From a virus (Duplodnaviria > Caudoviricetes), in the IMG/VR virus record IMGVR_UViG_3300034418_000868, positions 1 to 31,035 of that record: 31,035 nt of DNA, one strand, 5' to 3'. Position numbers and translations under genes: made by a program. Under the pieces are notes generated by a model. It was not told where the DNA came from, made no database searches, and saw nothing but the letters and a program-made list of their open reading frames with translations. Below are positions 1 through 30,545 of this stretch, piece by piece; position 1 is the first letter of the stretch, and every line of letters begins with the position of its first letter.

Positions 1-1545
1 TCCAAGTGTCGGGTCTGTTGTGAGAGTCTCCCAAGAAGGTACAGTGCCGTTGGTAGTTAGATACTTACCTGACTGACCTGACTGTGTTGGGAAGTCTGTT
101 ACCTGAGATAGAGTGACTGTGGTTGCTACTGGGGCAACGTCCTGCCAGACCGATCCTGTGTAGACCTTCATCGCATCAGTTGACGTATTGAAGTACAACG
201 CACCAGTGATTAAAGCGTTTCCGTCATTGTCTAATGTAGGATCAGATGCCTTCTCGCCTAAGTACCTATCATCAAACTCGTCATATTTATCCGCTGCGTC
301 AGTTGCTGAAGTAGCCGCTGAAGTAGCTGAGCCTGCTGCCGCAGTTGCACTTCCCGCTGCCGCTGTAGCTGAAGAGGCTGCACTTGTAGCACTTGTAGAC
401 GCATTTGAGGCGCTTGTAGAGGCCGCTGACGCGCTGTTAGCCGCATTGGTCTCTGATGTAGCCGCTGCACTCTCTGAGGCCGCTGCCGCCGTTTCTGAAG
501 CCGCTGCTGCCGTTTCTGAGGCTGCTGCGTTGGTTTCCGAAGTAGAGGCCGCACTAGCACTTGAAGCTGCGTTGGTCTCAGAGGTAGAGGCTGCGCTAGC
601 ACTCGCTGCTGCCGCAGTCTCACTAGCCGCTGCGTTGGTTTCACTTGTAGACGCTGCTGAGGCACTAGAAGCTGCATTGGTTTCGCTTGTAGCCGCCGCT
701 GATTCACTAGCCGCCGCCGCTGTCTCGCTAGCTGCTGCTGCCGTCTCAGACGCTGCTGCGTTAGTCTCTGCTGTTTCCGCTGCTGTCTCACTAGCTGCTG
801 CCGCTGTAGCACTAGCCGCCGCCGCCGTAGCACTTGCCGCTGCCGCCGCAGATGTGCCTACCCAGTAGGCAGGAGAGCTTGCCGGAATGTTGCCAGTGTT
901 TGAGTTTTGCAAAGACGTATAGAGAATGCCGTCAGTACCTACCGCATTTTCATTGATTGCGTATGTCCTGGTAGACAGCCAGGCAAAGCTCAGTAGCACC
1001 CAGTACGCTGTCGCACTGGACGGATTATTGTTCAGATTGGTGTTCTGGAGGCTCTGGTACTGCTCGCCGTTATAGGTGACTACAGCACCTTCCTGATAGG
1101 TTATGCCAGAGTTCCATTCTACTGAGTAAAGAAGAGTCCAGTATCCTGACGTAGATGTCGGATCATTGTTCTGGTTGCCTGCGGCAAGAGATCGGTAGTA
1201 TTGACCATCGCTACCCAATACCACAGCATCAGCACTGTATATCTTCGTAGCAACCCAGCCGTCACCAAATACACTAGCAGTCTGACCTATCGGGTCACGG
1301 ACCAGTATCTGCACATCATTCTTGTCTACCAGTATTGCCTTAGCAGTACCACTAAAGAATATGTTTGGTTGCCTACCAGCAGCAGTCAAGATGACCGGAT
1401 TGGTGTTGGCAATAGTCTGGTTGATGTCGCTGAAGGTATCTTTTAGAGTGGTCGTTCCAGTCTCGTAGAAATATATCTTACCGCTGCTTAGCGGATCGCC
1501 AGCGTCATCAAAGTATTGTGCGTTTATCTCGCCAAATCTAGCCAT
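1..1545 (-). CDS. Tail fibre/tailspike-type protein (3' end beyond window): head-binding-like N-terminus, three CBM5/12-like repeats, Ala/Ser/Thr-rich stalk
   Basis: Not in the ORF track because there is no stop in the window. Read by hand from the ATG at 1545, which overlaps the upstream TAA (TAATG): MARFGEINAQYFDDAGDPLSSGKIYFYETGTTTLKDTFSD...NTNPVILTAAGR, open to base 1. Contains SETNAAA/SETAAAA repeats then KYDEFDDRYLGEKASDPTLDNDGNALITGALYFN. Lies after the ejection genes, as the P22 tailspike does. Confidence 0.85.
   Translation of the reverse strand, partial: MARFGEINAQYFDDAGDPLSSGKIYFYETGTTTLKDTFSDINQTIANTNPVILTAAGRQPNIFFSGTAKAILVDKNDVQILVRDPIGQTASVFGDGWVATKIYSADAVVLGSDGQYYRSLAAGNQNNDPTSTSGYWTLLYSVEWNSGITYQEGAVVTYNGEQYQSLQNTNLNNNPSSATAYWVLLSFAWLSTRTYAINENAVGTDGILYTSLQNSNTGNIPASSPAYWVGTSAAAAASATAAAASATAAAASETAAETAETNAAASETAAAASETAAAASESAAATSETNAASSASAASTSETNAAASETAAAASASAASTSETNAASSASAASTSETNAAASETAAAASETAAAASESAAATSETNAANSASAASTSASNASTSATSAASSATAAAGSATAAAGSATSAATSATDAADKYDEFDDRYLGEKASDPTLDNDGNALITGALYFNTSTDAMKVYTGSVWQDVAPVATTVTLSQVTDFPTQSGQSGKYLTTNGTVPSWETLTTDPTLG
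300..850. repeat. Degenerate ~21-bp coding tandem repeat (7-aa Ala/Ser/Thr units of the fibre stalk)
   Basis: Recurrent units such as GCTGCTGCCGTTTCTGAG and GCTGCGTTGGTCTCAGA, encoding SETAAAA/SETNAAS on the minus strand. Confidence 0.85.
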
Positions 1546-9307: not shown

Positions 9308-10149
9308 TAGTTCACAATACCCACAATTGCATCAATCAAAACAACATTATCTGTGCTCGTGTCGTTACCAATATAAAGCTCAATGTAATCATTTTGAGAC
9401 AAGGAAACATTGAAAAACGTAGAAGCATTGGCAGACTCAGCCGAATCAACCTTTCTGGTTATTTTGCTGCCAGCTTCAACTGTTCCGTTTTTAGCAACCT
9501 GTATGAATACTTCTTGATTGTTTGAAGTAACAGGACTAAACGTAGCACTAACGTGAACAGCAGCAACTCTCGCAGAAGTACCGTTGTAGACAATCTTTCC
9601 TGTTGTATCTCCTGTGAATCCAGACTGTATGCCAACAACATAGGTTGCAGAAGCCTTAACGGGAGTACCAGCAGTTGATATTGTTGTTTCTCCAGTGTTT
9701 CCTTGAACACTAACCTGAGCGTATGGTTGCGCTTCAGCGTCAATCGTAACGTAGTTGCTTGTTGATGTTACGCTTATTCCGTTTCCTCCAACAATACTCG
9801 CTATATCAGGAGTTGCGTCCGTTACGTTAAGTAACAGTGGAGCGCCAGTGGAGTCGGCAGAGAAGTTGTGCTTGATCTCTACACCATTCTGGGCAGATAT
9901 GTTAGCCAGTATGCCCGCGCCGCTCTCGATGTTTCTGATTTTGTTTACGGTCCCATCAATATCCAGAACCGCTATGCCAGTGGGAGCGCCAGCCTGCACA
10001 ATCGTCCCGGTGACACCCAATCCTGCAAGGAAGTCACTATATGCGATCTTGTAGTTCGTGCCGTTGACAAAGTAATCAACGTAAGCGCCAGCCTCTACCG
10101 AAGTCTTCGCTACAAAATCGGACTTCTTCCTGCCCTGTGATCTATCCAT
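9307..10149 (-). CDS. Putative structural protein with C-terminal C1q/BclA-like beta-sandwich
   Basis: 280 aa, Gly/Ser/Thr/Val-rich; C-terminus VAKNGTVEAGS...VSLSQNDYIELYIGN. Translationally coupled between gp4 and gp10. Confidence 0.55.
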   Translation of the reverse strand: MDRSQGRKKSDFVAKTSVEAGAYVDYFVNGTNYKIAYSDFLAGLGVTGTIVQAGAPTGIAVLDIDGTVNKIRNIESGAGILANISAQNGVEIKHNFSADSTGAPLLLNVTDATPDIASIVGGNGISVTSTSNYVTIDAEAQPYAQVSVQGNTGETTISTAGTPVKASATYVVGIQSGFTGDTTGKIVYNGTSARVAAVHVSATFSPVTSNNQEVFIQVAKNGTVEAGSKITRKVDSAESANASTFFNVSLSQNDYIELYIGNDTSTDNVVLIDAIVGIVN

Positions 10150-10624
10150 TTGTGTTTAGCTCCAAACCAATCGAGCCAGTGGACTCCGCAAGGATATCCT
10201 CTTCTGACTCTGGATAAAAATGTCCGGGGAAGCCGAAGAGCGTATCTTCGTTGCCTGAGCCAATCGGCAGGGTTGCGGGCATCTTGGTCTCGCCCATGCT
10301 CTGACCGAGCAGCCTCATGGTATTGAAGCCATCACGCGCAGCCTTCACCAGCCCCTGCGAGATCACCCCGTTGTAATCTGGAGCCACCTCTATCGCCATG
10401 TTAGCGATCAAGCCCCTGAGAGCCCCTGTGGGGATCGTTACGGTATCACCCAGGTCAGAGACCTCTGTGTATCCCAACTGGATGCCCTGGGCGTCTAGCT
10501 CGCTCATATAGTTGTTCATAGCAAAGATGAAGTCACTATACTCATCAGGCTGCAGTGGAGACTCACTAGCCTGTACCAATATCCGTTGTAAGGCTGCCTT
10601 AGCAACCTGCGCGACTGTAGCCAT
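10142..10624 (-). CDS. Head-to-tail adaptor (P22 gp4-like)
   Basis: 160 aa; ...AIEVAPDY...MPATLPIGSGN motif; position after the coat cluster. Confidence 0.85.
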   Translation of the reverse strand: MATVAQVAKAALQRILVQASESPLQPDEYSDFIFAMNNYMSELDAQGIQLGYTEVSDLGDTVTIPTGALRGLIANMAIEVAPDYNGVISQGLVKAARDGFNTMRLLGQSMGETKMPATLPIGSGNEDTLFGFPGHFYPESEEDILAESTGSIGLELNTNG

Positions 10625-10749
10625 TACTCGTAGGTATTCCCGCTCATGTCTTTTCTAGGAGATCGCTTGCGCTTCTTCTTGCGGGCCTTCTCAGCCTGCT
10701 TCATACCCTCTTTCGTGTATGGAAACTTCTTACCGCCTACGTTTGGCAT
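10624..10749 (-). CDS. Small basic protein (41 aa)
   Basis: Below the ORF-track cut-off. Read by hand: MPNVGGKKFPYTKEGMKQAEKARKKKRKRSPRKDMSGNTYE*. GAGGTGA SD; its TAA overlaps the gp4 ATG. Confidence 0.8.
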   Translation of the reverse strand: MPNVGGKKFPYTKEGMKQAEKARKKKRKRSPRKDMSGNTYE

Positions 10750-10756
10750 GATCACC

Positions 10757-11161
10757 TCACTCGAATTTAGCCCTAGATGTCTTCTTGGCAACCTTCTTCG
10801 GCTGCGCGGAATGCTGCTTGCCCTTCTTCATATCAGCCCGCTTCTTGCGTGAAGTGGCCTCATACTCCTTCTTGCTCAGCTTGTCTCTCGCCTTCTTGGG
10901 AAGGTATCGCTCCCCGGTAGCGTCTTTGCCCTGAGTGGAGTTCTTGCCGGACTTGGTTCCCCAATCCTCTTTGGTCCACTTGGACAGATCCTTCTGAGCC
11001 TTGCTCTTCTTGCCAGTGTAGCCGCCGCCCGCCTTTTCGTATTCCTTAGCAAGCAGTTGGCTCTTCCTGGCTGACCACTGACCGGGCTTGCCGCCCTTGT
11101 CACTAGCCATAATTCTGTTCTTGATGCGCTCTCTGAGTTTGGGTTTCGTATAGTTACTCAA
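10757..11161 (-). CDS. Lys-rich basic protein (GGKPGQWSARK family, function unknown)
   Basis: 134 aa; TTG start overlapping the upstream stop, AAGGGAG SD. Ends RAKFE. Confidence 0.8.
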   Translation of the reverse strand: MSNYTKPKLRERIKNRIMASDKGGKPGQWSARKSQLLAKEYEKAGGGYTGKKSKAQKDLSKWTKEDWGTKSGKNSTQGKDATGERYLPKKARDKLSKKEYEATSRKKRADMKKGKQHSAQPKKVAKKTSRAKFE

Positions 11162-11423
11162 ACTTAGCTCCCTTCATCGACTTAGCGCCTTTACATTTCC
11201 AGCGCTTGCGACTCAGATTGTTGGGAGTATTGGGATCGTTCTGCTTTTCCTTTGGCAATCTTTTCTTGATGCCAAGAGACCGGGCACAATAGGAATCACC
11301 CTTACTTGTACCCGGCTTAACTCTAGGACCACCTCCTTTGGCTTTGCCAGCCTGCCCATAGGAGACCTTCTTGCCGCTGGCGGTTACCTTGACCTTAGCT
11401 TTGCCTTTTCTTGGTTTTGCCAT
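11154..11423 (-). CDS. Lys-rich basic protein (PGTSKGDSYCARS motif)
   Basis: 89 aa, directly downstream of the coat terminator. Ends KGAKFE. Confidence 0.8.
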   Translation of the reverse strand: MAKPRKGKAKVKVTASGKKVSYGQAGKAKGGGPRVKPGTSKGDSYCARSLGIKKRLPKEKQNDPNTPNNLSRKRWKCKGAKSMKGAKFE

Positions 11424-11450
11424 AAAAAAGTAGGGGACCGAAGTCCCCTA
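11424..11450 (-). terminator. Rho-independent terminator after the coat gene
   Basis: Minus strand reads TAGGGGAC-TTCG-GTCCCCTA-C-TTTTTT: 8-bp stem, cUUCGg tetraloop, U tract. Confidence 0.9.
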
Positions 11451-11466
11451 TAAACTCAAAGGAGAG

Positions 11467-12732
11467 TTAGACACCAAAGCCTTGTCCAGCCATAAACGGA
11501 TTGAATGTTGCGTATGCAGGCAACAAGTCAAAACGAATCTTCTGGGTGTTAGCGTCACCATCTGCGTACTTAGAAACACGGATGCTCATACCGTCTTCGG
11601 TAGTCGCAATAGTGTCAGTTGAGTACAGTTTAGGCAGCTTGACAGTACCCATACCGAAAGCCTGCTTAGTGAAGAACAGGTTTGGCTGGTACAGAGTAGC
11701 TGAAGCACTCAGGATAGTAACCGCAGCACCGCTAATTGGTGCAGCGTCTACAGTGTTGTACTGACCACCAGCCTCATAGATCGCAGGCCCAGCAACGACA
11801 ATGTTACCCGCACCGCCAGTAAGAGTGACATCAGCAGTCACAACACCTGTCCAAGCCACGTTGGCTCCAGAGGCATCGATCATAGCTGTGCGAGTGTCTA
11901 GGTTCAGACGGTTTACATTAGCGATAGTTACCATATCGCCAGCCTTCACAACCATACCAGAAGTGAATCCAGTAACAGCCAGAGTCTGAGTCATAGTGTC
12001 TTTCGCTGTGACGTAAGTCGCATCAGGAGCCCCATTCAGAGTACCCTCACGGTCAGCGCCAGTGCCAGAAGTAAAGCTAGCCAGAGCGTTAGAAGTCAGA
12101 GCTCGCATACCACCGAAGTTCTGAGAGATTTGTGCATTCTCCCAAGCGGTACGGACCAGCTGATCTGAAGCATTCAGGCCATTCTGTACGTTAGCAAGTG
12201 CGCTAGTGGTGAAAGGATTCATCAGGTAGTAGCGCTCTGCAGCAGCAGGCACACCAATAGAGTCCATCAAAGCACCAGCACCTGCGACATCACCCCATGC
12301 GTCAACGGCAGTGCCGTGAGAACCATACTTCAGAGAAGAGTTCTTGAGCATATAGCTGGCAAGATCGATCTCCAGGTCAGTCACGATGCGTCGAGCCATA
12401 GGAGCAAGGATCTGCTCCAACTGATCAAGCTCAAGAGCTTCTTCCACGTTGCCCCACTCGGTAGCTACGGTGAAGTAGTTCTGAACAGTACCAGTTGCTT
12501 TACCAGCAATGATGTCTGACTTAGTGGACGATGAAATATCACCGCCAGAAGTACGGATGGAGTTGTAGTCGTGCGGACGCTTGAAGTCTACAGTGCTACC
12601 ACTTGAAGGGTTGAATTTGCCACTCAGGAGTTGAGTGTCAACGGTTTTAGTAACAACCCGGCTGGACTCGAATGCCTCTAAAAAGACACGAGCCACCTTC
12701 CGGGTGACGTTGCTGTTAAGATTATTAGCCAT
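11467..12732 (-). CDS. Major capsid (coat) protein, P22 gp5-like
   Basis: 421 aa; MANNL start, VVKAGDMVTIANV insertion domain, IRFDLLPAY C-terminus. Strong GAGGTGA SD; follows the scaffold. Confidence 0.92.
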   Translation of the reverse strand: MANNLNSNVTRKVARVFLEAFESSRVVTKTVDTQLLSGKFNPSSGSTVDFKRPHDYNSIRTSGGDISSSTKSDIIAGKATGTVQNYFTVATEWGNVEEALELDQLEQILAPMARRIVTDLEIDLASYMLKNSSLKYGSHGTAVDAWGDVAGAGALMDSIGVPAAAERYYLMNPFTTSALANVQNGLNASDQLVRTAWENAQISQNFGGMRALTSNALASFTSGTGADREGTLNGAPDATYVTAKDTMTQTLAVTGFTSGMVVKAGDMVTIANVNRLNLDTRTAMIDASGANVAWTGVVTADVTLTGGAGNIVVAGPAIYEAGGQYNTVDAAPISGAAVTILSASATLYQPNLFFTKQAFGMGTVKLPKLYSTDTIATTEDGMSIRVSKYADGDANTQKIRFDLLPAYATFNPFMAGQGFGV

Positions 12733-12748
12733 TTTCGGATCACCTCAT

Positions 12749-13576
12749 TCATTCAAACATTGCCCCCTTCGGTCCTCGCGCTTTAGGCGCAACACCAGCT
12801 TTTGCTGGCTGATTAACCGGATCAGGAGCGGCATTTACTTTAGGTTTTAATGCAGCAGCCTTTTCTCGTACATGAGTAGCTATCCGTACAGCAGCTTGCG
12901 CCGGGCTCATTGCTCGGATGGTGTCTAGCTCGGTCACGTTCTGACTGAGGTACTTCGTTATCGCCGGTCCCAGATCGTCATCCAAAATATAGTTGACTAC
13001 ATCATCTGCGATTCCGAACGATGCGACAGCATTACCTGCTGCCTGTAACTCCTCGTTAGAAATGCCAAGCTGGACAGCTCGCTGCGAGTAGGTAGATACC
13101 TTCTCGTTCAAAGCCTCCTGCTCTTTCATCAGCTGTTCATGCTGCAAACGCTGCGCCTCCTGTTGTTGAAAGCGCTGCTGTGCGTCAAACGCAGCCTGTC
13201 TAGCTATGGCTTCATCGCGCAGTCGGAGTTGCTGCTGGTATTCCTGATCGCTCAGGGCATACGGGTCAGGCTCCTTCGGCACGTTTGGCCTTTCCTGTTT
13301 TGGCATTTGCTGCTCAAGCGCTTGTAGACGTTGCTTTAGCTGTTCGGCCTCCAGCTCTTTTTCCCTGAGCCTTTTAACCTTTTCAGCTATGCCTCTGTCA
13401 TAAGCCTCTTGCTGCACCGGGTCAAATCTAGCCCGGACCTTACGCCAATCAGGATCGGTTTGTTTCTCCTGAACCTCTTCAGTATCCGTAGATGAGTCGG
13501 AATCAGTTTCCTGATCTTCAGTTTCTACCTCTTCAAGCTCTATTTCAGCCTCATCGAGCGTATCTTCTGGTTGCAT
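12749..13576 (-). CDS. Scaffolding protein
   Basis: Acidic N-terminus, coiled-coil, GPAITKYL and MSPAQAAVRI segments, Pro/Lys C-terminal tail; immediately upstream of coat. Start moved from 13627 to ATG 13576 (GGAAGG SD). Confidence 0.85.
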   Translation of the reverse strand: MQPEDTLDEAEIELEEVETEDQETDSDSSTDTEEVQEKQTDPDWRKVRARFDPVQQEAYDRGIAEKVKRLREKELEAEQLKQRLQALEQQMPKQERPNVPKEPDPYALSDQEYQQQLRLRDEAIARQAAFDAQQRFQQQEAQRLQHEQLMKEQEALNEKVSTYSQRAVQLGISNEELQAAGNAVASFGIADDVVNYILDDDLGPAITKYLSQNVTELDTIRAMSPAQAAVRIATHVREKAAALKPKVNAAPDPVNQPAKAGVAPKARGPKGAMFE

Positions 13577-13653
13577 CTTACCTTCCATAAATGCCGTCAA
13601 ATAAACGGTGACGTTCCGTGCCTCCAAGAAAGCGTGGAGTTCGCTATGGCGTT

Positions 13654-13685: not shown

Positions 13686-16385
13686 TTAGAATTGCGCTCT
13701 ACGCGCTTCCATGCCCCTCAATACATCATCTGTGATTACCCCTGTAAGTGGGCTCAGCTCTAGTTTTCTGGTTCCAGCGCCCATCCCAGTGCTTCTAGGA
13801 GGATTCAGCAACTGATCTGGCCGAATACCCCCAAGATATGCGGCTTGCGGGTTTAGCTCGTAGACAGAGTAAGGAACAGCAAGTCTTCCTAAACCCTCGC
13901 CGTATAGCCCTCCTTTATAAATCGGATGGACATCTCCCACAGTAATCATTCTGCTTGTATCGACCAGCCCAACATTACGCAGGGTTGAGTCCCTGGACAT
14001 AGCTTGAGCTTGATCTAGTAATGCTGCTCTAGCCTGCCCGGAAGTCAGGGCTCCCTTCTGAGAATAGTCATTGTTAATGATATTGATGATCTTCTTTCTA
14101 ACATCCCCAGAGGCTTGATTGACTTGGCTCATGCCGTCAGGGCTATTGATCCCACTGAATCCGGGGAATACTTCCTTGATATCGGCATCTAGCTTGTTCA
14201 AATCTGACAGGTCCAGAGCATTCCTTGCGTGGGAGAGCATGACCTCTGCTGGCTGCGAAAAATCAACTCCAGTGGGAGCCATAGAGAATGGTATAAACAA
14301 GGGGTCTTTGCCAGTTTGCTCTCTTAGAGCTATAGCTCTTCCAAGTATTGATTTCTCTCTTGGTTCCTTAAATACAGACGTTCCAGACCTTCTCTCTTGA
14401 CCTACAAGAACGTCAGGAGCGGATGCCCATACGAATTCTCCGCTCTCAGGATCGAACATATAGTCCATCCCTCCGCGCCTAGAAACATTGACCGGGACAC
14501 CATTGATTGACTGAATCACATCACCCGCTGCGCTTCTGTCGGACATTGAGGATATGAAAGGATAACCCTCATAATCTTCAAGATTTATGATCGGTACATC
14601 ACCAATCCTCTGATCGCCTATTTGGATATCGGTGGATAGGTTCCTATCAACCTGGCTTATTAGAGGCTTTCTCGTATTTGCTCCAGATCCAGCAGCGTAG
14701 GTTCTTGGGTCAATCCCTGCGCTCGTGTAGCTTTCAATAACTCTGGGGTCATAGTCTTTAGGGAATTGCTCTTGAAGCAACTGACCCAGAGACGATCCTG
14801 CAGCTATGCCTGTTCCTGTCCTGCCGCCAGAGTACAGGATATTCGCGCTCTCACCTGGCTTAAACTCTGCGTTTACTGATCTGATGTTTTGAGGATCAAA
14901 GATGTTTAACTGCGTTACATTTCCAGACTCATCTAATTGCCTGATCCCGTCATAACCGCTATCCCTGAGTCTTTGTATACGGTCTTGGTCGAAGGGCATG
15001 ATCGCTCGCCCTTGCAGATCTAAGAAATTAAGATCCTTCCGCAATCGTAAAGGCATCACGTTTGGTGAGGCATTGTTTGTATCACGGCGCATAAATCTAC
15101 GAATCGCTGCATAACCACTAGCTTTCTCTGGGTTTGGAGTCATGTAAATACCCGGACCCAAGTCACCAACTTCTGATGGTGTGAATTCAGTAAAATCAGA
15201 TGATGTGCCGTGATAGTAAGTGGTGTCCATATCAAAGTCTGGCCTAGACCTGTCCGACAGGATGTTGGAACCCGACCTTCCTGCAGCAATGCCGGTTCCT
15301 GTTCTGCCGCCACTGTATAGGGCTGTAGGAGACGCTGTTTTCTCTATCAACACGCCAGCTTGACCTATCTTCTCTGGCAGGTTTCTTATGGTGAAACCTT
15401 CACCCAATTGAGCCTGCATGTAGTCCCTAAGCTCTGGCTGAGTGAAACCCTTCTGATAAGTGTCCGCAGTAGTGATAATCGACATAGGCTCTCTGCCCGG
15501 AGTGCCTTTTGCGTTCAACACATCTCTGCCGCGAGTAGTAACAACAGCTCTGCCCCCGGGCGCCAAAACCCTACCGATATCAGCAACCGCCTGATCCCTG
15601 ACATCTCTGGGCATTACGTTGAGCACATTAAGAGATGTTAGGTTCTCGTAAGATTCATCTGGGATATCTGCTGCGCTGGAATATGTTGGGCTGAATCCCT
15701 CTCGCGGATATGGTTCAAAAGTGTCTGCCCCGATCTCTGACGCCCCTTGACCTCTTCCGGCCCCGAAGTCCAGAGTTCTACCCTCGCCAAGCACGTTTCT
15801 AGCTTTTTGATAACTCGGCAGCGTTGAAGCGCCAAGCTGGGTACGTTGAGCATTTGATAACGGAGGCATCCGCAAGCCGGAGCCCATCACAGCGCCCTCA
15901 GCCGGGTTACCGCCAAACATCGTAATGGTAGGGTCAAACGCTACGGTCCTGCCCGTCTCAGGATCAAAGTATTCACCGCCTGATGCCGCGGCCCTTGCCT
16001 GCTCGGACATATACTCAGCACTGCCAAACAAAGCATCCCGGAGGCTAGAGCCTACACCTTGTATTGCCTCTACCTGCTCGTCTGGGCCTCTGAATCCAAG
16101 GAATGATGGAGCTTCGCCAAGCATATCGCCCAACGCAGAAAGCCCCCTACGGACCGGAGAATAACTAGGATCGTACTCAACAGGACCATACTGGGCTGGG
16201 ATTGTTTCGGTTATGTACTCAAGACCAGAAGGACCAGCAGCAAGGCCAGCAACCTGCGTGGATTCTGGGCGCAATATCTCTCTGCGCTGACCTGAAAGAA
16301 ATTGAGAGAATGGACCTAGCCCGCCGTACATATATTGGCGGTTATTAACTTCCTCTTGAGCTAGCTCTTGGTCGGTCTTAGCCAC
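13686..16385 (-). CDS. Polyvalent multidomain protein: SAM-dependent methyltransferase + ADP-ribosyltransferase-like (ART-PolyVal type) + unknown C-terminal domain
   Basis: LDFGAGRG and LNVLNV (MTase); YHGT..F..F, GPGIYMT, GYDGI, IFDPQNIRS (ART-like). Likely GTG start at 16385 overlapping the portal stop; the track start is 16394. Confidence 0.8.
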   Translation of the reverse strand: MAKTDQELAQEEVNNRQYMYGGLGPFSQFLSGQRREILRPESTQVAGLAAGPSGLEYITETIPAQYGPVEYDPSYSPVRRGLSALGDMLGEAPSFLGFRGPDEQVEAIQGVGSSLRDALFGSAEYMSEQARAAASGGEYFDPETGRTVAFDPTITMFGGNPAEGAVMGSGLRMPPLSNAQRTQLGASTLPSYQKARNVLGEGRTLDFGAGRGQGASEIGADTFEPYPREGFSPTYSSAADIPDESYENLTSLNVLNVMPRDVRDQAVADIGRVLAPGGRAVVTTRGRDVLNAKGTPGREPMSIITTADTYQKGFTQPELRDYMQAQLGEGFTIRNLPEKIGQAGVLIEKTASPTALYSGGRTGTGIAAGRSGSNILSDRSRPDFDMDTTYYHGTSSDFTEFTPSEVGDLGPGIYMTPNPEKASGYAAIRRFMRRDTNNASPNVMPLRLRKDLNFLDLQGRAIMPFDQDRIQRLRDSGYDGIRQLDESGNVTQLNIFDPQNIRSVNAEFKPGESANILYSGGRTGTGIAAGSSLGQLLQEQFPKDYDPRVIESYTSAGIDPRTYAAGSGANTRKPLISQVDRNLSTDIQIGDQRIGDVPIINLEDYEGYPFISSMSDRSAAGDVIQSINGVPVNVSRRGGMDYMFDPESGEFVWASAPDVLVGQERRSGTSVFKEPREKSILGRAIALREQTGKDPLFIPFSMAPTGVDFSQPAEVMLSHARNALDLSDLNKLDADIKEVFPGFSGINSPDGMSQVNQASGDVRKKIINIINNDYSQKGALTSGQARAALLDQAQAMSRDSTLRNVGLVDTSRMITVGDVHPIYKGGLYGEGLGRLAVPYSVYELNPQAAYLGGIRPDQLLNPPRSTGMGAGTRKLELSPLTGVITDDVLRGMEARRAQF
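14796..15320 (-). repeat. Direct repeat pair encoding LYSGGRTGTGIAAG (14796-14837 and 15279-15320), flanking the ART domain
   Basis: Two 42-nt copies; identical peptide, 6 nucleotide differences, all synonymous. Confidence 0.95.
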
Positions 16386-18600
16386 CGTTCGCAATCCTGA
16401 TCAGGTCTATATCCGACATCATAGCCATCCGAGCCTTGCGCTCCTGCTCGTCCATCATCTCCTGCATCTGCTCTTGGTTGTCTAACTGATCACCAAATGC
16501 CTTGATGTTGGTGTGGTCTATAACAGCACCAGCCTTCTCAGCCTCTACCTGCGCCTTGATGCGATTGGTCTGAGCATTGAAGACATCAACCTGCGTCTTG
16601 GCCTGATCCGCTACCAGTTCGTTCTGGTCGTTCTGGGCCTGCAGTTGTATTCTCATAGTCTCGTTCTGCACCTTCTGAGCATCAACCTGGGCCTTCATCA
16701 TATCGGCCTGGGCCTTCATCTGCTCTGCTTGTGCAAGCACCATAGCGGGATCAGGAGCCTGTCCCTGAGCCTGCATCATCTGCTTGGCCTGCATCTCCTG
16801 AAGCTCTTCCTCGGTCATCTGTGACTGCGGGATCAATCCTTGAGAGATCATCTGAATGCGCTTGCGCTCTGCGATCTGAGATGCCGCTGGAGTGGATATG
16901 TTCTGCAGCAACAGATCACCAGCAATCTGCATCAGTGTCGGATCGGTCTGAGCCAGAGCGGTAATGGCCTCAATGGTCTCCTGCTGACGGTTGCGGAAGC
17001 TGGGTCCAGCCCTACAGGTAACGTCATAGCTGCCCACCTGCATATCATTAACAACCACCACCTCGCCGGTCTCGTTATCAATGACCTTCTGGTTCAGGTC
17101 CACCATATCGTAGGACTCGTCCTCGCGGAGTATCCTGACCTGGCGCTGAGTGTCGTAGATCATCGGGATCGCATCCTTGATCAGCCTACCAGTGGCCGCT
17201 ACAGCGATCTCTACACCCTTGCTGTACTTGAACGTGCCATTGGAGCCACGATCCTGCAGTTGACGTATAGCAACGCCTGACTGCAGTCCGGGATTGTCTC
17301 CCATACTGGCAGCGAACATACCCGCCGTCTGACCGATAATCCCACGCATGGCCTCGGATATCGTGCGCAGTCCGGGGTTGATCTGGGCTCCGCCTTGCTG
17401 CTGCGGGACCGCAGGGGTCTCGGGGTCCACGTTGTAGAATTGAACCGGGTCTGCGTTGGTGTTTAATGTTCGAAGCTGCTTCTCATGACCAGAAGCCTGA
17501 GCAGGTGTCATCCAATACTTCGCTCTAGGCGCAAGAGCCCCTTCTTCAATCTCCCGCGATACGCTGTAGTTCATCACCCGCTGGGGATCTAGCAGCTTCT
17601 CTACCACACCCCAGTAGATTGTCTTGTTCTCAAAAATCTTGAAGTTGGCGTAAGTCGGGACCACCGGAATTCGGCAAAATACGGTCTCTTTCTTTTCTTC
17701 AAGGAAGTCTTTCGCATCAAAGTACCTGCTGCAAACGTAATGCTTCTTGCGCGTTCTGCGCTTGACCTCGGTCACACCAATGGCAGCCAGGTCATCTACT
17801 ACCTTCTCGAAGTCATCATTGACCTCGTGCACCTGACCATTGGACATCAGCACAAGATCGCGGTCCTCTGATTCGAGATACAGAAACTCACCGACTACCA
17901 CCACCTCGGCCTTGTCGTAATAAGCCTCGCCGTCCCGGCTGTCATCCACGCTCTCACCAGCCCCCTCGGGCCACCTAGCCTCATACTCATCCTTAGCCAT
18001 AGGATGAAGCACAAATGCATACCGGCTGTCTGACTTATCCTGATTCTCTGCCGCTGGATCGAACCACACCCGGTCAACGAAGTTGCCGATATGCTCAATC
18101 GCCAGGTCTTGGTCGAAGGTATTGTCGCTGATGTACTTCTGGACCACCCGCCAGCCATCCATGCCGCCGATAACCATATTCCGCGCCGCCTGGGCATACA
18201 CGGTCTTGGCGTTGGACATCTGCTCAATATTGCGGATGATGCCGTCAATGGTGACAGCAATGTCTTTGGTGGCGTTCCCACCGGCAGGTGATACTCGGAT
18301 ATCGTAGTCGCTCTGCTCGATCTCAGAGGCTACCTGATCGACGATAGGGTTTACTTGATCGAAGGTATATCTTGGCTTTTCTTCGTTTGAGTTCCACCAG
18401 TAGGGCTCCCACTGGCCGTCTCGCTTGTCCAAGAACAAGTGAGCCTCTCGCACCCGCTCCCGGTTGTCTTGATCTGCCATCTGGCACTTGCTCAGAAGAT
18501 CAATGACATCCTGATGGTTATCATATTCTGCCTTGAATGAGAGATCAGCCTCTGCCGATCCCCGGCTGTCTAGCTCTTTGCCATCATCATATTCTGCCAT
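16378..18600 (-). CDS. Portal protein, P22 gp1-like
   Basis: ~740 aa; DGQW, GVVEKLLDPQRVMNY, SGVAI and YDVTCRAGPSF motifs, Gln-rich C-terminal barrel. Follows TerL. Likely start is ATG 18600 (track start 18615). Confidence 0.92.
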   Translation of the reverse strand: MAEYDDGKELDSRGSAEADLSFKAEYDNHQDVIDLLSKCQMADQDNRERVREAHLFLDKRDGQWEPYWWNSNEEKPRYTFDQVNPIVDQVASEIEQSDYDIRVSPAGGNATKDIAVTIDGIIRNIEQMSNAKTVYAQAARNMVIGGMDGWRVVQKYISDNTFDQDLAIEHIGNFVDRVWFDPAAENQDKSDSRYAFVLHPMAKDEYEARWPEGAGESVDDSRDGEAYYDKAEVVVVGEFLYLESEDRDLVLMSNGQVHEVNDDFEKVVDDLAAIGVTEVKRRTRKKHYVCSRYFDAKDFLEEKKETVFCRIPVVPTYANFKIFENKTIYWGVVEKLLDPQRVMNYSVSREIEEGALAPRAKYWMTPAQASGHEKQLRTLNTNADPVQFYNVDPETPAVPQQQGGAQINPGLRTISEAMRGIIGQTAGMFAASMGDNPGLQSGVAIRQLQDRGSNGTFKYSKGVEIAVAATGRLIKDAIPMIYDTQRQVRILREDESYDMVDLNQKVIDNETGEVVVVNDMQVGSYDVTCRAGPSFRNRQQETIEAITALAQTDPTLMQIAGDLLLQNISTPAASQIAERKRIQMISQGLIPQSQMTEEELQEMQAKQMMQAQGQAPDPAMVLAQAEQMKAQADMMKAQVDAQKVQNETMRIQLQAQNDQNELVADQAKTQVDVFNAQTNRIKAQVEAEKAGAVIDHTNIKAFGDQLDNQEQMQEMMDEQERKARMAMMSDIDLIRIANGG

Positions 18601-20017
18601 TCTTCCATCCCGCAAAGTTGATAGTCACTGGCTTCACAGTGCTTACTTTAGGGCTGTGCATCGACATCATAAGAGCATCGCCCATGTTCGGTGAAGGTAT
18701 CGAGTACGGCTTCTTCGCCATCTCTACCTTGCTAAGAATCTGGATTTTACCACTATTTGCCCGTTTTAGTGGGATTCTGCACACCTCAGAGCGTAATTGT
18801 TCAAGGTTGTCAATCTCAGATGACAGGCTTATAAGCTCCTCTGGGTTGATGTACTGGCCCTTCTCAACCGCCCGGTACGTTGCCTCAAACCTGTCCCGCA
18901 AAGTCCACCACATCTGGGCTCGCTTGTTGAAGAAGGTCTCCCGGTTGGTCTTAGCCCTCTGGCTTCCTCCCAGCGTATAAGGCATCTCTGGGTCATATGG
19001 AGACTCGGAGCCCTTAAACATATGGTATTCGATCTTCTTACCATCGAGCGCCTGATCTACCTGGCGCTTGAGACTTATCCCCAAGCCATCACAGTCCCAG
19101 ATGAAATGGTCTGCCTGAGCTGATATGGCCTTCTCCAGAGCCCAGTCCATACCCTCGTTGGAATCACCTGTTACCTTTTCGCACACATCCAGGATTACGT
19201 TGCCGTGGCGCAGCGCGTAGCCTTTACTGTCACCGCCCTCGTCCGATGGATCGTGAGACGCGATCAGAGAGCCCTCTGGCTTCCACCCGAGCTTGGTGTG
19301 GGCGTCGATAGCGGCATCAAACCAGTCAGGCTCAATGATACTGTCCTGCACCGTATCAAGGTGCTTACCCTCCCAGATGTGCTCGTACATAGCTCTGGGC
19401 AGGTTCTGCCTATCATGCACCCGCTCCTGTTCTAGTGGGGTCTTCACGAACCACGGGTTATCCTCGTAGTTCATTCGGATCACCAGGTGCATATCGTCTT
19501 CATATATGCCGTCCCGGTTGAGCTGCTTCTCGAAAGGCTTAATGAATCGCTCGGAGAATGCGTCAGTGCTAGACCGGGGATTGCCTGACAGCCATATCTG
19601 ACTGCCCTGCTCCCGGAGAGTAGGAGTTAGAGCCTTGAGGCTTTCAAAGGATATTGTCTGTGCCTCTTCAACCCAGAACAGATTGAAGCCGAACATTGAC
19701 TTAACGGCCTCTACGTTGCGAGCCAAGCCCCTGAATTTGAAGGCTACCTCACCGTTGAAGAGTATCTGGTTGTTCTGAACCTCGAAGTCCTCAAGCCCAT
19801 AAGAGCCTATCTGAGACGCTAGGAGGCTGTGTACTGAGTCATCTATGCTGTTCTGAAACTCTCTAAAGGCTCCGATCTTCTGGCCCTTGAGAGCTTTCAG
19901 GAGGCTCAGGGAACCAAGCCCGTAACTCTTGCCACTCCCGCGGCCGCCGTATACAACAACAAACCGCTGCTTGGCGGTTAGTATTGGCAGTAGCTTAGGT
20001 GCAATCTGTAGATTCAT
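18587..20017 (-). CDS. terL: Terminase large subunit (PBSX/Sf6-type)
   Basis: Walker A YGGRGSGKS, Walker B WVEEAQ, LTPTLR, NP coupling motif, nuclease motifs DPSDEGGD and SPNMGDAL. Confidence 0.96.
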   Translation of the reverse strand: MNLQIAPKLLPILTAKQRFVVVYGGRGSGKSYGLGSLSLLKALKGQKIGAFREFQNSIDDSVHSLLASQIGSYGLEDFEVQNNQILFNGEVAFKFRGLARNVEAVKSMFGFNLFWVEEAQTISFESLKALTPTLREQGSQIWLSGNPRSSTDAFSERFIKPFEKQLNRDGIYEDDMHLVIRMNYEDNPWFVKTPLEQERVHDRQNLPRAMYEHIWEGKHLDTVQDSIIEPDWFDAAIDAHTKLGWKPEGSLIASHDPSDEGGDSKGYALRHGNVILDVCEKVTGDSNEGMDWALEKAISAQADHFIWDCDGLGISLKRQVDQALDGKKIEYHMFKGSESPYDPEMPYTLGGSQRAKTNRETFFNKRAQMWWTLRDRFEATYRAVEKGQYINPEELISLSSEIDNLEQLRSEVCRIPLKRANSGKIQILSKVEMAKKPYSIPSPNMGDALMMSMHSPKVSTVKPVTINFAGWKNGRI

Positions 20018-20190
20018 TCAATCTCTATTGATGACTTCCGAATTCGTATAGCTCGACTTTGCGCCTCGGCCTTATCCTTAGTGTTGTGGCCGCCGCCATC
20101 AATCGCTGTGCCCTTGTCGTTTTTTGCTATAGTCCCATCAGGCTCTACCAGCCTGTACCTCTTGCCTATACGCTTCACGCTAATCGGCAT
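20014..20190 (-). CDS. Small basic hypothetical protein (58 aa) between TerS and TerL
   Basis: Read by hand: MPISVKRIGKRYRLVEPDGTIAKNDKGTAIDGGGHNTKDKAEAQSRAIRIRKSSIEIE*. GGAG SD; its TGA overlaps the TerL ATG. Confidence 0.75.
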   Translation of the reverse strand: MPISVKRIGKRYRLVEPDGTIAKNDKGTAIDGGGHNTKDKAEAQSRAIRIRKSSIEIE

Positions 20191-28672: not shown

Positions 28673-28701
28673 ATTGTAATGCAGGTGATGTTGTATTGCT
28701 A
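28673..28701 (-). promoter_or_regulatory. Putative sigma70 promoter of the recombination operon
   Basis: TAGCAA-17 bp-TACAAT, followed by the SD-occluding hairpin TCTCCA-GATTCAT-TGGAGA. Confidence 0.55.
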
Positions 28702-29115
28702 GCTTTTTGTGTATTGGTTGCTGACAAGCATATCAGCAAGCTCTACCGCCCGGTTTCCGGTCTGTTTAGCGAATTTAGAATCAAGCACCTCTGCGCCAGC
28801 GTCCTTCCAATTCCCGTTCTGAATTGCCCACATCAATTTACGAAAGTGAGAAAAAGAAGGTCCACCGACGCAGAAGTACAAATCTATAATAGCATCACGG
28901 CGGGCGCCGTCCAGCGTATTAAACCATTCATAATGACCGAGTTCTTGGATGCAGACGTTGATGTCACGCTGGAGAAGCATCATAGCCTCTTTCTCGGTAA
29001 TCCCGTTATCTGTAAGGTTACGCCCTACTCCGATAGTTGTTTTGCCCGCAGTGCACTCGTAGGGTCTCAGGCGCAGCCCTTCGTGCTTTATGAGTAGGTC
29101 AGTCAAGTTGTTCAT
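28699..29115 (-). CDS. Endolysin, GH24/T4-type lysozyme
   Basis: HEGLRLRPYECTAGKTTIGVGRNL catalytic segment; AGAEVLDSKFAKQTGNRA. Confidence 0.92.
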   Translation of the reverse strand: MNNLTDLLIKHEGLRLRPYECTAGKTTIGVGRNLTDNGITEKEAMMLLQRDINVCIQELGHYEWFNTLDGARRDAIIDLYFCVGGPSFSHFRKLMWAIQNGNWKDAGAEVLDSKFAKQTGNRAVELADMLVSNQYTKS

Positions 29116-29299
29116 CAGTAAGTTGTCCTGAAAGCCACGATTGATTTAAAGAGAGAATACCGAGTATTGTGTATGGACTGAGACCAGCATCGAGCTTCAT
29201 CTCGATCCACTTGCTCAACTGCTCATCAGCCTCAACAGCCATATCCTCCAGCTTCTCAGCAGAAAAGACGGGGAGATCTATCACGTTAGTCATCGACAA
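29099..29299 (-). CDS. Hypothetical protein
   Basis: 66 aa, overlaps both neighbours. Confidence 0.65.
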   Translation of the reverse strand: MSMTNVIDLPVFSAEKLEDMAVEADEQLSKWIEMKLDAGLSPYTILGILSLNQSWLSGQLTDEQLD

Positions 29300-30545
29300 A
29301 TATTCCTGAGCTTACAATCTTTCCATGATCTGGCGAAGTCAGCCAGTATGCCTGCTGTGGTGGCTCCGGCCTGAACCCATTTATTCGCGCATATTCGTCA
29401 TAGCCTTTGAGAGATCCATTCACCATAAAGTGGCCCAGATCGCGGTACTGATGCCAATGTCCGACCATGTGGTAGTCAATGTGTCCCCAGGAAGTCAGGC
29501 GCTTGTCGTGCAATCGCATCAATGGAGAGAACATACCGCCCCAACCGCTCCCGCCGCGGGTTGCATCACCGTGTTCCATATAGAATTGCCAGCCGTAAGT
29601 CTTCCAACCGATGTCAAAGGTGAATGGTATGTCGAATTTGATATTGTCTATTTTTTGCAGCCTCAGCATATTCGCTACAGTGCGGCACAGCAGAAAATCG
29701 AAATTATCAGCAACTCGGCCCTTCATTCTGGGCTTGCGCGTATTCCTGCCGTGATTGCCAACCACGCAGGGAACATAGATCGTCTTGAATTCTCTGGACA
29801 AATAAACAAAGCCCTTTGCGATTTCTTGAGCCCAATAATCAACCGTCTCCATGATCTCGGCGTCATTAGACCTGGCAAGCTCCTCGTGGATATTCCCTCC
29901 GACCAAGTCACCCCCCAGGGGCAAATCAAGATGCTCAACCTCAAACCCAGACATATAGTCCTGGCTCATGGTTATGACTTTAGTGAAGAAGTTATGAAGC
30001 CGCCGGGTTGCGATCTGTCTATTGTATTCATTGGTCCCGCCCATCTCTTCGAGTGAAACAACCTCGTCAAAATGAGTGTCTGATAGCATCGCGCCAGCAG
30101 CAACGATAGGCTTTTTGGATTTCTTCCTGCGGGATTTGCTTGGAGGCTTGAGTTCAAAGTCTTCGGATTGATCCAGAAGGTTTAAGACATCTTCTGATTC
30201 TGTGAGCCTCTTTTCTAGCTCTTTATTCTCAGCAGTCAGCGACTTTATCTGTCGCTTCAGTTTGTGTTCTTCAGTGACCGTAAGTGTTTCATATTCAACA
30301 ATTCTGACAGTCAGATCTTCGTAGGACTCATCCTCATCAGCGTACCACGGTCCCTCGTAACCAGACTTCCTGGCCTGTTTTTTAACTCTAGTCAAAGTGT
30401 GGTGGATATTAGACGCATCAATGCCTAACTCAGCAGCAGCTTTCTCCGCGCTGCCATGCTTCAACCACAGTCTAATTTTCTCAGCCTGCACATCAGTGGA
30501 GCAGTAATTTATTAAATTGGGGTGTGGCGGTCTCGCAGCAGGCAT
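29286..30545 (-). CDS. Calcineurin-like metallophosphoesterase with N-terminal HTH and coiled-coil
   Basis: SDTH, GGDLV, GNHGR, HGD and GHWH metal-binding motifs; AEKAAAELGIDASNI (HTH). Confidence 0.88.
   Translation of the reverse strand: MPAARPPHPNLINYCSTDVQAEKIRLWLKHGSAEKAAAELGIDASNIHHTLTRVKKQARKSGYEGPWYADEDESYEDLTVRIVEYETLTVTEEHKLKRQIKSLTAENKELEKRLTESEDVLNLLDQSEDFELKPPSKSRRKKSKKPIVAAGAMLSDTHFDEVVSLEEMGGTNEYNRQIATRRLHNFFTKVITMSQDYMSGFEVEHLDLPLGGDLVGGNIHEELARSNDAEIMETVDYWAQEIAKGFVYLSREFKTIYVPCVVGNHGRNTRKPRMKGRVADNFDFLLCRTVANMLRLQKIDNIKFDIPFTFDIGWKTYGWQFYMEHGDATRGGSGWGGMFSPLMRLHDKRLTSWGHIDYHMVGHWHQYRDLGHFMVNGSLKGYDEYARINGFRPEPPQQAYWLTSPDHGKIVSSGIFVDD

Follow-up and report, generated by a model that had tools for sequence, protein, structure and literature searches.

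Encapsulins, cellular compartments without a scaffold or a genome, take varied cargo into a shell of the HK97 fold by means of a short peptide at the cargo's terminus. Here we describe a possible counterpart in an aquatic, Sf6/P22-like tailed phage: a C-terminal tail ending in an aromatic residue and glutamate, shared by the head scaffolding protein and three small Lys/Arg-rich proteins encoded directly after the coat gene in IMG/VR virus record IMGVR_UViG_3300034418_000868 (Duplodnaviria; Caudoviricetes; the whole stretch analysed, positions 1 to 31,035, is called the window).

Parts of such an arrangement are already known—shared scaffold tails from CpmB, short head addresses on basic proteins from phage T4, and loading by scaffold fusion from engineered P22. 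CpmB of SaPI1 is a second protein with the C-terminal motif of the 80alpha scaffold (RIIK) and the same capsid-protein site; it is a single, satellite-encoded competitor with a 16-residue helix-and-hook, and it alters capsid size (PMC5644958). The tail described here likewise repeats the C-terminal motif of the scaffold; unlike CpmB, it stands on unrelated basic proteins of the phage itself, encoded in the phage's own head operon and not by a satellite, and it is five to six residues long and ends in an acid. The internal proteins IPI–III of T4 are small, basic, poorly conserved proteins that bind DNA at low salt, are present in about 300 copies each, and are sent to the head by a short shared peptide (PMC9026906). 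That capsid targeting sequence (CTS) is N-terminal, binds the core, and is removed by the prohead protease (PMC9026906), whereas the tail in the window is C-terminal and copies the scaffold. The tagged families are small, basic, and variable between relatives, as in T4; their shared motif is not an N-terminal propeptide of the T4 type, and the head-module proteins scanned gave no match to a protease family.

In P22-type shells a C-terminal piece of the scaffold suffices to bring in a foreign protein; the fusions are artificial and use fragments of 65–163 residues with a basic helical hook (PMC9962691). A natural tag of the kind considered here would have about a tenth of this length and would belong to the Sf6 type. 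The head modules of Sf6 and of Pseudoalteromonas phage H6/1 have the same gene order and coat type as the window, with one untagged small gene between coat and adaptor; neither carries tagged cargo there. A search of a library that lacks most subscription papers turned up no publication in which many unrelated phage-encoded proteins naturally bear a five-residue C-terminal copy of the scaffold end, and the available portions of PMC13386823 and PMC11456595 do not describe such a tag.

The minus strand of the window, a 31-kb linear virus record that is about 90% complete, encodes a P22/Sf6-like head module. The elements that bear on the tail are the following:

12749..13627, minus strand: head scaffolding protein, ending GPKGAMFE (phrog_8865 scaffold, E=1.5e-23)
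12752..12766, minus strand: scaffold tail G-A-M-F-E, the proposed model for the tag
11467..12732, minus strand: Sf6-type major coat protein (PF11651, E=2e-72), the putative receptor
11154-11423, minus strand: 89-residue basic protein with a DUF6321-like fold; tail GAKFE at 11157-11171
10757-11161, minus strand: 134-residue basic protein, DUF5872-like, with a TTG start; tail RAKFE at 10760-10774
10624-10749, minus strand: 41-residue basic protein; tail GNTYE at 10627-10641
10142..10624, minus strand: gp4-like head-tail adaptor (PF11650, phrog_637), untagged, which closes the variable post-coat slot

With their stop codons, the tails are written GCA ATG TTT GAA TGA in the scaffold (PKGAMFE), GCT AAG TTT GAG TAA in the 89-residue gene (KGAKFE), GCT AAA TTC GAG TGA in the 134-residue gene (RAKFE), and AAT ACC TAC GAG TAA in the 41-residue gene (GNTYE), relatives of which end GATYE, GAKFE, or GAKYE. 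The earlier note had reported this shared aromatic–glutamate C-terminus on otherwise unrelated proteins; tails and codons are as it gave them, and pairwise BLASTP among the three post-coat proteins returns E values of 13, 16, and 3.4. Net charges are +23, +27, and +10 for the 89-, 134-, and 41-residue proteins, with isoelectric points of 10.4–10.8. Among 48 minus-strand genes that a heuristic caller tiled across the window, [FY]E endings are limited to the scaffold and these three. Ratios of nonsynonymous to synonymous polymorphism (pN/pS) of 0.03 for the 89-residue gene and 0.06 for the 134-residue gene, from six same-length homologs each, indicate purifying selection; the 41-residue gene has too few changes for the ratio. 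The AlphaFold2 model of the 89-residue protein has a confident folded core, and its last four residues (86–89) have a pLDDT below 50 and are predicted to be unstructured.

The tail was followed through 367 sequences, made up of 366 loci (some contigs occur twice) and the window; 244 of them have an Sf6-type coat and 123 have none. Loci were gathered by coat similarity, which is blind to the tail, and by similarity to the 89- and 134-residue proteins, which favours tagged matches. Counted as unique sequences, members of the 89-residue family are tagged in 37/37 cases beside an Sf6-type coat versus 0/50 elsewhere, many of the untagged members being 85–95% identical; the 134-residue family gives 5/5 versus 0/57. 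Two further basic families, absent from the window, give 35/35 (34 [FY]E and one LE) versus 0/12, and 6/6 versus 0/14. The 41-residue family, whose members were recognised by a motif that was relaxed for loci without an Sf6-type coat, gives 14/14 versus 0/14. The contrasts were kept after clustering at 90% identity (11/11 vs 0/14, 2/2 vs 0/20, 21/21 vs 0/8, and 5/5 vs 0/11). Since five unrelated families are tagged, the tail must have been gained in at least five separate events.

Two backgrounds set these counts in proportion. In loci with an Sf6-type coat, an [FY]E ending occurs in 1 of 738 unique annotated genes that are neither slot genes nor scaffolds; in other loci it occurs in 2 of 874 ATG-initiated genes of at least 60 residues. 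When one family was sought through an internal DNA motif, and so blind to the tail, 120 loci were recovered and none of 115 complete open reading frames was tagged; the untagged state is thus the norm for the family. No Sf6-type head was detected among these loci, 40 of which are too short to show head type.

Bacterial proteolysis is steered by C-terminal residues, and an acidic–aromatic end could in principle do no more than shield the scaffold and the unstructured basic proteins against host proteases that attack C-termini, or serve as a host-specific degradation signal. We consider this very unlikely: the likeness extends over five to six residues of the scaffold tail, the other genes of the same phages do without it (the 1/738 above), and so do homologs in other aquatic phages (0/115).

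A second alternative arises from the gene layout itself. The TTG start of the 134-residue gene sits inside the Phe-Glu codons of the 89-residue gene; the stop of the 134-residue gene runs into the Shine-Dalgarno sequence of the 41-residue gene, whose own stop overlaps the ATG of the gp4-like gene. Each tail in the window thus doubles as a start signal for the next gene, a point missed in the earlier note, and an overlap artefact is therefore a real rival: the shared ending could be a by-product of translational coupling or of a DNA-level motif, whether a Shine-Dalgarno sequence with an overlapping start or a copied 3' end of the scaffold gene. Start-codon overlap is indeed certain or possible in 77 of 93 unique tag ends. 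The other 16 are separate from the next start, however, and the tail is kept across five gene-overlap geometries and three stop codons, with every synonymous codon in use (TAC 30, TTT 24, TAT 20, and TTC 14; GAG 48 and GAA 45). In the 89-residue family the terminal Glu is invariant and the linker that joins it to the conserved core differs in length by up to eight residues, and HNH genes (0/7) and other genes of the slot do not gain the tail. Tag codons are no closer to those of the scaffold in the same genome than to those of shuffled scaffolds (match 0.41 vs 0.40), so the tags are not fresh DNA copies, and descent from a recent copy of the scaffold end is unsupported. Persistence across geometries and free synonymous change in relatives rule out the overlap or Shine-Dalgarno artefact; the wider coupling or DNA-motif explanation is largely refuted and scarcely credible. 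The codon differences that the earlier note took as a sign of selection on the peptide are borne out, and the comparisons indicate a tail that is real, context-dependent, and selected as peptide, not as DNA.

The peptide resembles the end of the scaffold in Sf6-type loci. Of 106 unique scaffold tails adjoining Sf6-type coats, 88 have [FY]E as their last residues and G-[ATV]-x-[FY]-E fits 81; from -1 to -6, the residue profile of the tags is in accord with that of the scaffolds. The scaffold of H6/1 ends KGAKFE. The model is better taken from Sf6 than from P22, on which the earlier note had drawn: the coat of the window is 48% identical to Sf6 gp5 and the Sf6 scaffold ends PGAKIE, whereas the P22 hook binds through Arg293/Lys296 (PMC12005531). 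Among cultured phages the coat is closest to that of H6/1 (56%), and its structural model fits Sf6 coat structures best (TM 0.82–0.83, vs 0.64–0.75 for P22 chains).

In a second coat clade (9/41 rows, support 100/99) the tails of scaffolds and neighbours move towards an aliphatic residue followed by Glu. Its scaffolds end either in FE or in V[TS]VE, VTIE, or VKIE, and its small basic neighbours end in TLE, TVE, MLE, or IFE. The large protein encoded ahead of the scaffold in the three V[TS]VE lineages closes with a basic stretch and then NYTVE, YNIE, or FTID; one genome pair combines scaffold KVTVE with neighbour NYTVE, and one family occurs in both coat clades with different tails. The coat N-arm of this clade carries T10V and R11E among eleven clade-specific changes. 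Covariation of tag and scaffold, which the earlier note had proposed as a check, is seen when head types, or the two coat clades, are compared; genome by genome it is absent inside the main clade, where a tag agrees with its own scaffold to the same degree as with shuffled ones (3.01 vs 2.99 residues). What stands of its proposed scaffold-mimicking aromatic–glutamate tag is peptide-level selection, a copy of G-A-x-[FY]-E, confinement to Sf6-type coats, and the shift in the second clade.

The receptor of the tail might not be the coat but the portal, the scaffold, or some other head protein, so that the tagged proteins would be placed at the portal vertex. The rival receptor in the window is:

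16378..18615, minus strand: P22-type portal (PF16510, E=3e-140)

P22 scaffold hooks and loops also touch the portal (PMC12005531), and a basic motif in the wing of the Sf6 and P22 portals (PMC13386823) offers a possible binding site for an acidic terminus. The coat N-arm changes, however, go with the shifted tails of the second clade, a single contrast that concerns the coat side only, and we regard recognition at the portal vertex as unlikely and of little weight.

Our preferred reading, to which we assign a probability of about 0.68 on sequence comparison and analogy, is that the tail acts as a scaffold-mimicking address, a copy of the [GK]-A-x-[FY]-E end of the scaffold, that would load unrelated, mobile Lys/Arg-rich proteins into the Sf6-type procapsid via the inner scaffold site of the coat. 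What is observed is the tail itself, its confinement to this head type, the selection acting on it as a peptide, a C-terminal end left free behind linkers of variable length, and a shift together with the scaffold tail at clade level. In P22, the C-terminal hook of the scaffold binds the coat N-arm and the scaffold fills part of the coat sites, 250–300 for 415 (PMC12005531). By analogy with P22 and 80alpha, the scaffold C-terminus would be the coat-binding element here too; the aromatic residue would enter a coat pocket, and the Glu with its free carboxylate would pair with basic residues, for which R15, R25, and K29 of the coat, conserved at 96% or more, are candidates. The tagged proteins would be made by read-through past the coat terminator, hence below the level of the scaffold, and would take a minority of the sites. 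After expansion and scaffold exit, their positive charge would keep them with the incoming DNA—cationic truncated fragments of the P22 scaffold remain inside after expansion (PMC9962691)—and they may act as internal nucleic-acid-binding proteins that neutralise the DNA or leave with it.

A tail that binds the scaffold site could also serve assembly modulators or co-scaffolds that leave with the scaffold and are not cargo of the mature virion. CpmB has the C-terminal motif of its scaffold in common and competes for its site (PMC5644958), and the P22 scaffold exits via hexamer openings that small proteins could use as well (PMC12005531). Cargo nevertheless accounts better than a geometric role for at least five unrelated and interchangeable families at 0–4 copies per genome; these families are also found untagged in other head types, and the retention of the cationic truncated P22 scaffold noted above argues in the same direction. 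We think a co-scaffold role unlikely, though it retains some weight.

Several results weigh against the loading of tagged proteins as cargo. A basic family in the same slot that ends in KW is tagged in 0/10 cases, and the small gene at the ancestral Sf6-gp6 position in 0/51; of 195 loci whose slot is complete, 82 lack any tagged gene, which makes the tag dispensable. Within families, free trees need 4 and 2 changes, and a single origin is not rejected (approximately unbiased (AU) test, p 0.68 and 0.055). Tyr is commoner in tags (50/93) than in scaffolds (16), and to this is added the lack of genome-by-genome agreement in the main clade. The second-clade shift amounts to one phylogenetic contrast: the small LE/VE proteins sit in genomes with FE scaffolds, and in the available DNA of three aliphatic-tail scaffold lineages (VTIE and VKIE loci) no tagged neighbour was seen. 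Homologs in S-TIM5, CRP-7, and HMO-2011 are annotated as hypothetical, some of their neighbours being annotated as virion proteins.

Two groups of untagged slot genes deserve description in their own right. The KW family (L274:5303-5620 and relatives) is widespread and has a weak DUF6321 hit; the Trp conserved at its end may have a structural role or be a signal of another kind. HNH endonuclease-like genes, all untagged, are inserted directly 3' of the coat gene in L247, L263, L264, L281, and L285.

The 89-residue module also occurs outside the Sf6-type setting, at or near the C-terminus of larger proteins; at least 70 residues precede it in 84 of 150 representatives. An [LIV]-x-E lies just ahead of the basic module in 76 of the 84 (shuffled sequences average 38 and reach 52 at most). 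In 41 of the 84 a leader is present that closes with a similar Glu (average of 6 in shuffles), a pattern chosen after viewing the sequences. Unrelated neighbouring genes in large-phage loci carry such leaders too, with at least one match in 16 of 23 loci, and no prohead protease gene was seen in those loci. The leaders resemble the T4 CTS propeptides cut by the prohead protease (PMC9026906), which gives indirect support, by analogy, to the idea that the 89-residue module is head cargo whose address differs between phages. In the large phage contigs L541, L556, and L558, several unrelated genes have a common N-terminal leader, MKLLLENWRxxLxE, and the 89-residue module stands behind L-x-E sites, a candidate T4-CTS-like address in uncultured large phages. 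Elsewhere, in L491:199-863, L465:3075-3224, and L525:84-456, neighbouring basic genes share SLIS/SLLS or SLLG/TLLG ends, possibly a further common tail; no tie of the SLLS/SLIS/TLLG tail to a scaffold was obtained in these other phages.

Family assignments of the window proteins are weak. The 89-residue protein has no Pfam match and is not placed in DUF6321 (PF19846); its likeness to that family is weak in features (0.89) and in fold (E 0.06–0.6), the fold matches being cyanophage proteins, one of them labelled a virion protein (E 0.43), and its model matches no solved structure. The 134-residue protein scores 24.5 bits against PF19197 (DUF5872; E=4.5e-5), under the cut-off of 27.5, and its Atlas neighbours are DUF5872 clusters at 0.96.

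A wider proposal, which we hold tentatively and at a little short of even odds, is an encapsulin-like natural cargo system in Sf6-type aquatic podophages, in which any gene that gains a five-residue copy of the scaffold end would be loaded at the coat's scaffold sites, and in which a mobile pool of basic "viral protamines", together in one clade with proteins of 700–1300 residues, would be readdressed for each head type; the tail would then name the coat-binding element of the Sf6 scaffold. Readdressing would rely on a C-terminal scaffold mimic here, and, in large phages that encode a protease, on an N-terminal leader that can be cut off.

The choice of internal proteins in P22/Sf6-like phages is poorly defined, and a five-residue tail would provide a rule that can be read from the genome. 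If the loading hypothesis is right, a location would be assigned to very common aquatic phage genes of hitherto unassigned function—the 89-residue family comprises 1994 clusters at 90% identity, and the internal motif of another family is present in an estimated ~9300 stored stretches. The terminal GAKIE of the Sf6 scaffold would be predicted to be its coat hook, and the tail, as a loading tag, would be much smaller than the pieces of scaffold currently employed for P22 particles.

Two other genes of the module bear on how far the tag extends:

20014-20190, minus strand: 58-residue basic protein between TerS and TerL, ending SSIEIE
13686..16394, minus strand: 902-residue polyvalent protein, ART-PolyVal (PF18760), ending RRAQF, untagged

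The 58-residue gene, to which the earlier note had given the place of a weaker candidate, gains support. Homologs in 10 of 18 loci, 83–100% identical, end in [IV]EIE, two further homologs end in ELE, and a 64%-identical homolog ends in RKASYE; one shorter variant is without such an ending. Judged by these ends, it is probably a fourth tagged protein.

A tag on the 902-residue protein was looked for and is absent in the window. The N-terminal part of this protein appears methyltransferase-like by eye, and relatives in the portal–scaffold slot range from ~300 to 1100 residues; their N-termini remain alike (MAESAL.., MAKTDQ..) and may form an address of their own. Among 42 unique tails of large proteins in this slot, a count that excludes L336 (a scaffold, not a large protein), tag-like ends are limited to three second-clade tails and one GYE. 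The proteins at L316:2-3991, L315:1-3987, and L342:1902-4022, of 700–1330 residues and with no Pfam hit, have a basic linker and a tail like their own V[TS]VE scaffold, and on that likeness they are possible large tagged cargo.

The module as a whole has the order TerS, 58-residue gene, TerL, portal, 902-residue ART-PolyVal protein, scaffold, coat, three small genes, gp4-like, gp10-like, and ejection-type genes; the series TerS–TerL–portal–scaffold–coat–gp4–gp10, with P22-type portal and coat, is that of an Sf6/P22-like head module. The scaffold reading frame opens at TTG, the true start probably being a slightly later ATG, and the protein has no match among solved structures. Directly 3' of the coat gene lies the terminator past which read-through is proposed:

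11431..11450, minus strand: intrinsic terminator-like hairpin

Five terminator-like sites were found versus 3.3 expected, so that one match is weak evidence; the Sf6 annotation places a terminator at the same post-coat position, and an Rfam search gave no match. Contigs from RNA libraries (4 of 24 runs) span the 89- and 134-residue genes, one extending from inside the coat gene through both, and by themselves show neither transcription nor its level. In two runs deeper contigs stop within the 89-residue gene, to which no weight is given. At 11423-11450 (minus strand), the ATG of the 89-residue gene follows directly on the terminator U-tract, with no free Shine-Dalgarno sequence and a GGGG inside the hairpin.

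In GTDB, only 3 loci lie in metagenome-assembled genomes, and they do not identify the host. At the left end of the window, 188-868 (plus strand) and 258-833 (minus strand), lies a highly repetitive, periodic Ala/Ser/Glu-rich open reading frame whose other strand resembles a coiled-coil fibre repeat. A 419-residue protein at 29286-30545 (minus strand) has metallophosphoesterase-like motifs by eye and adjoins a lysozyme-like gene at 28699-29115.

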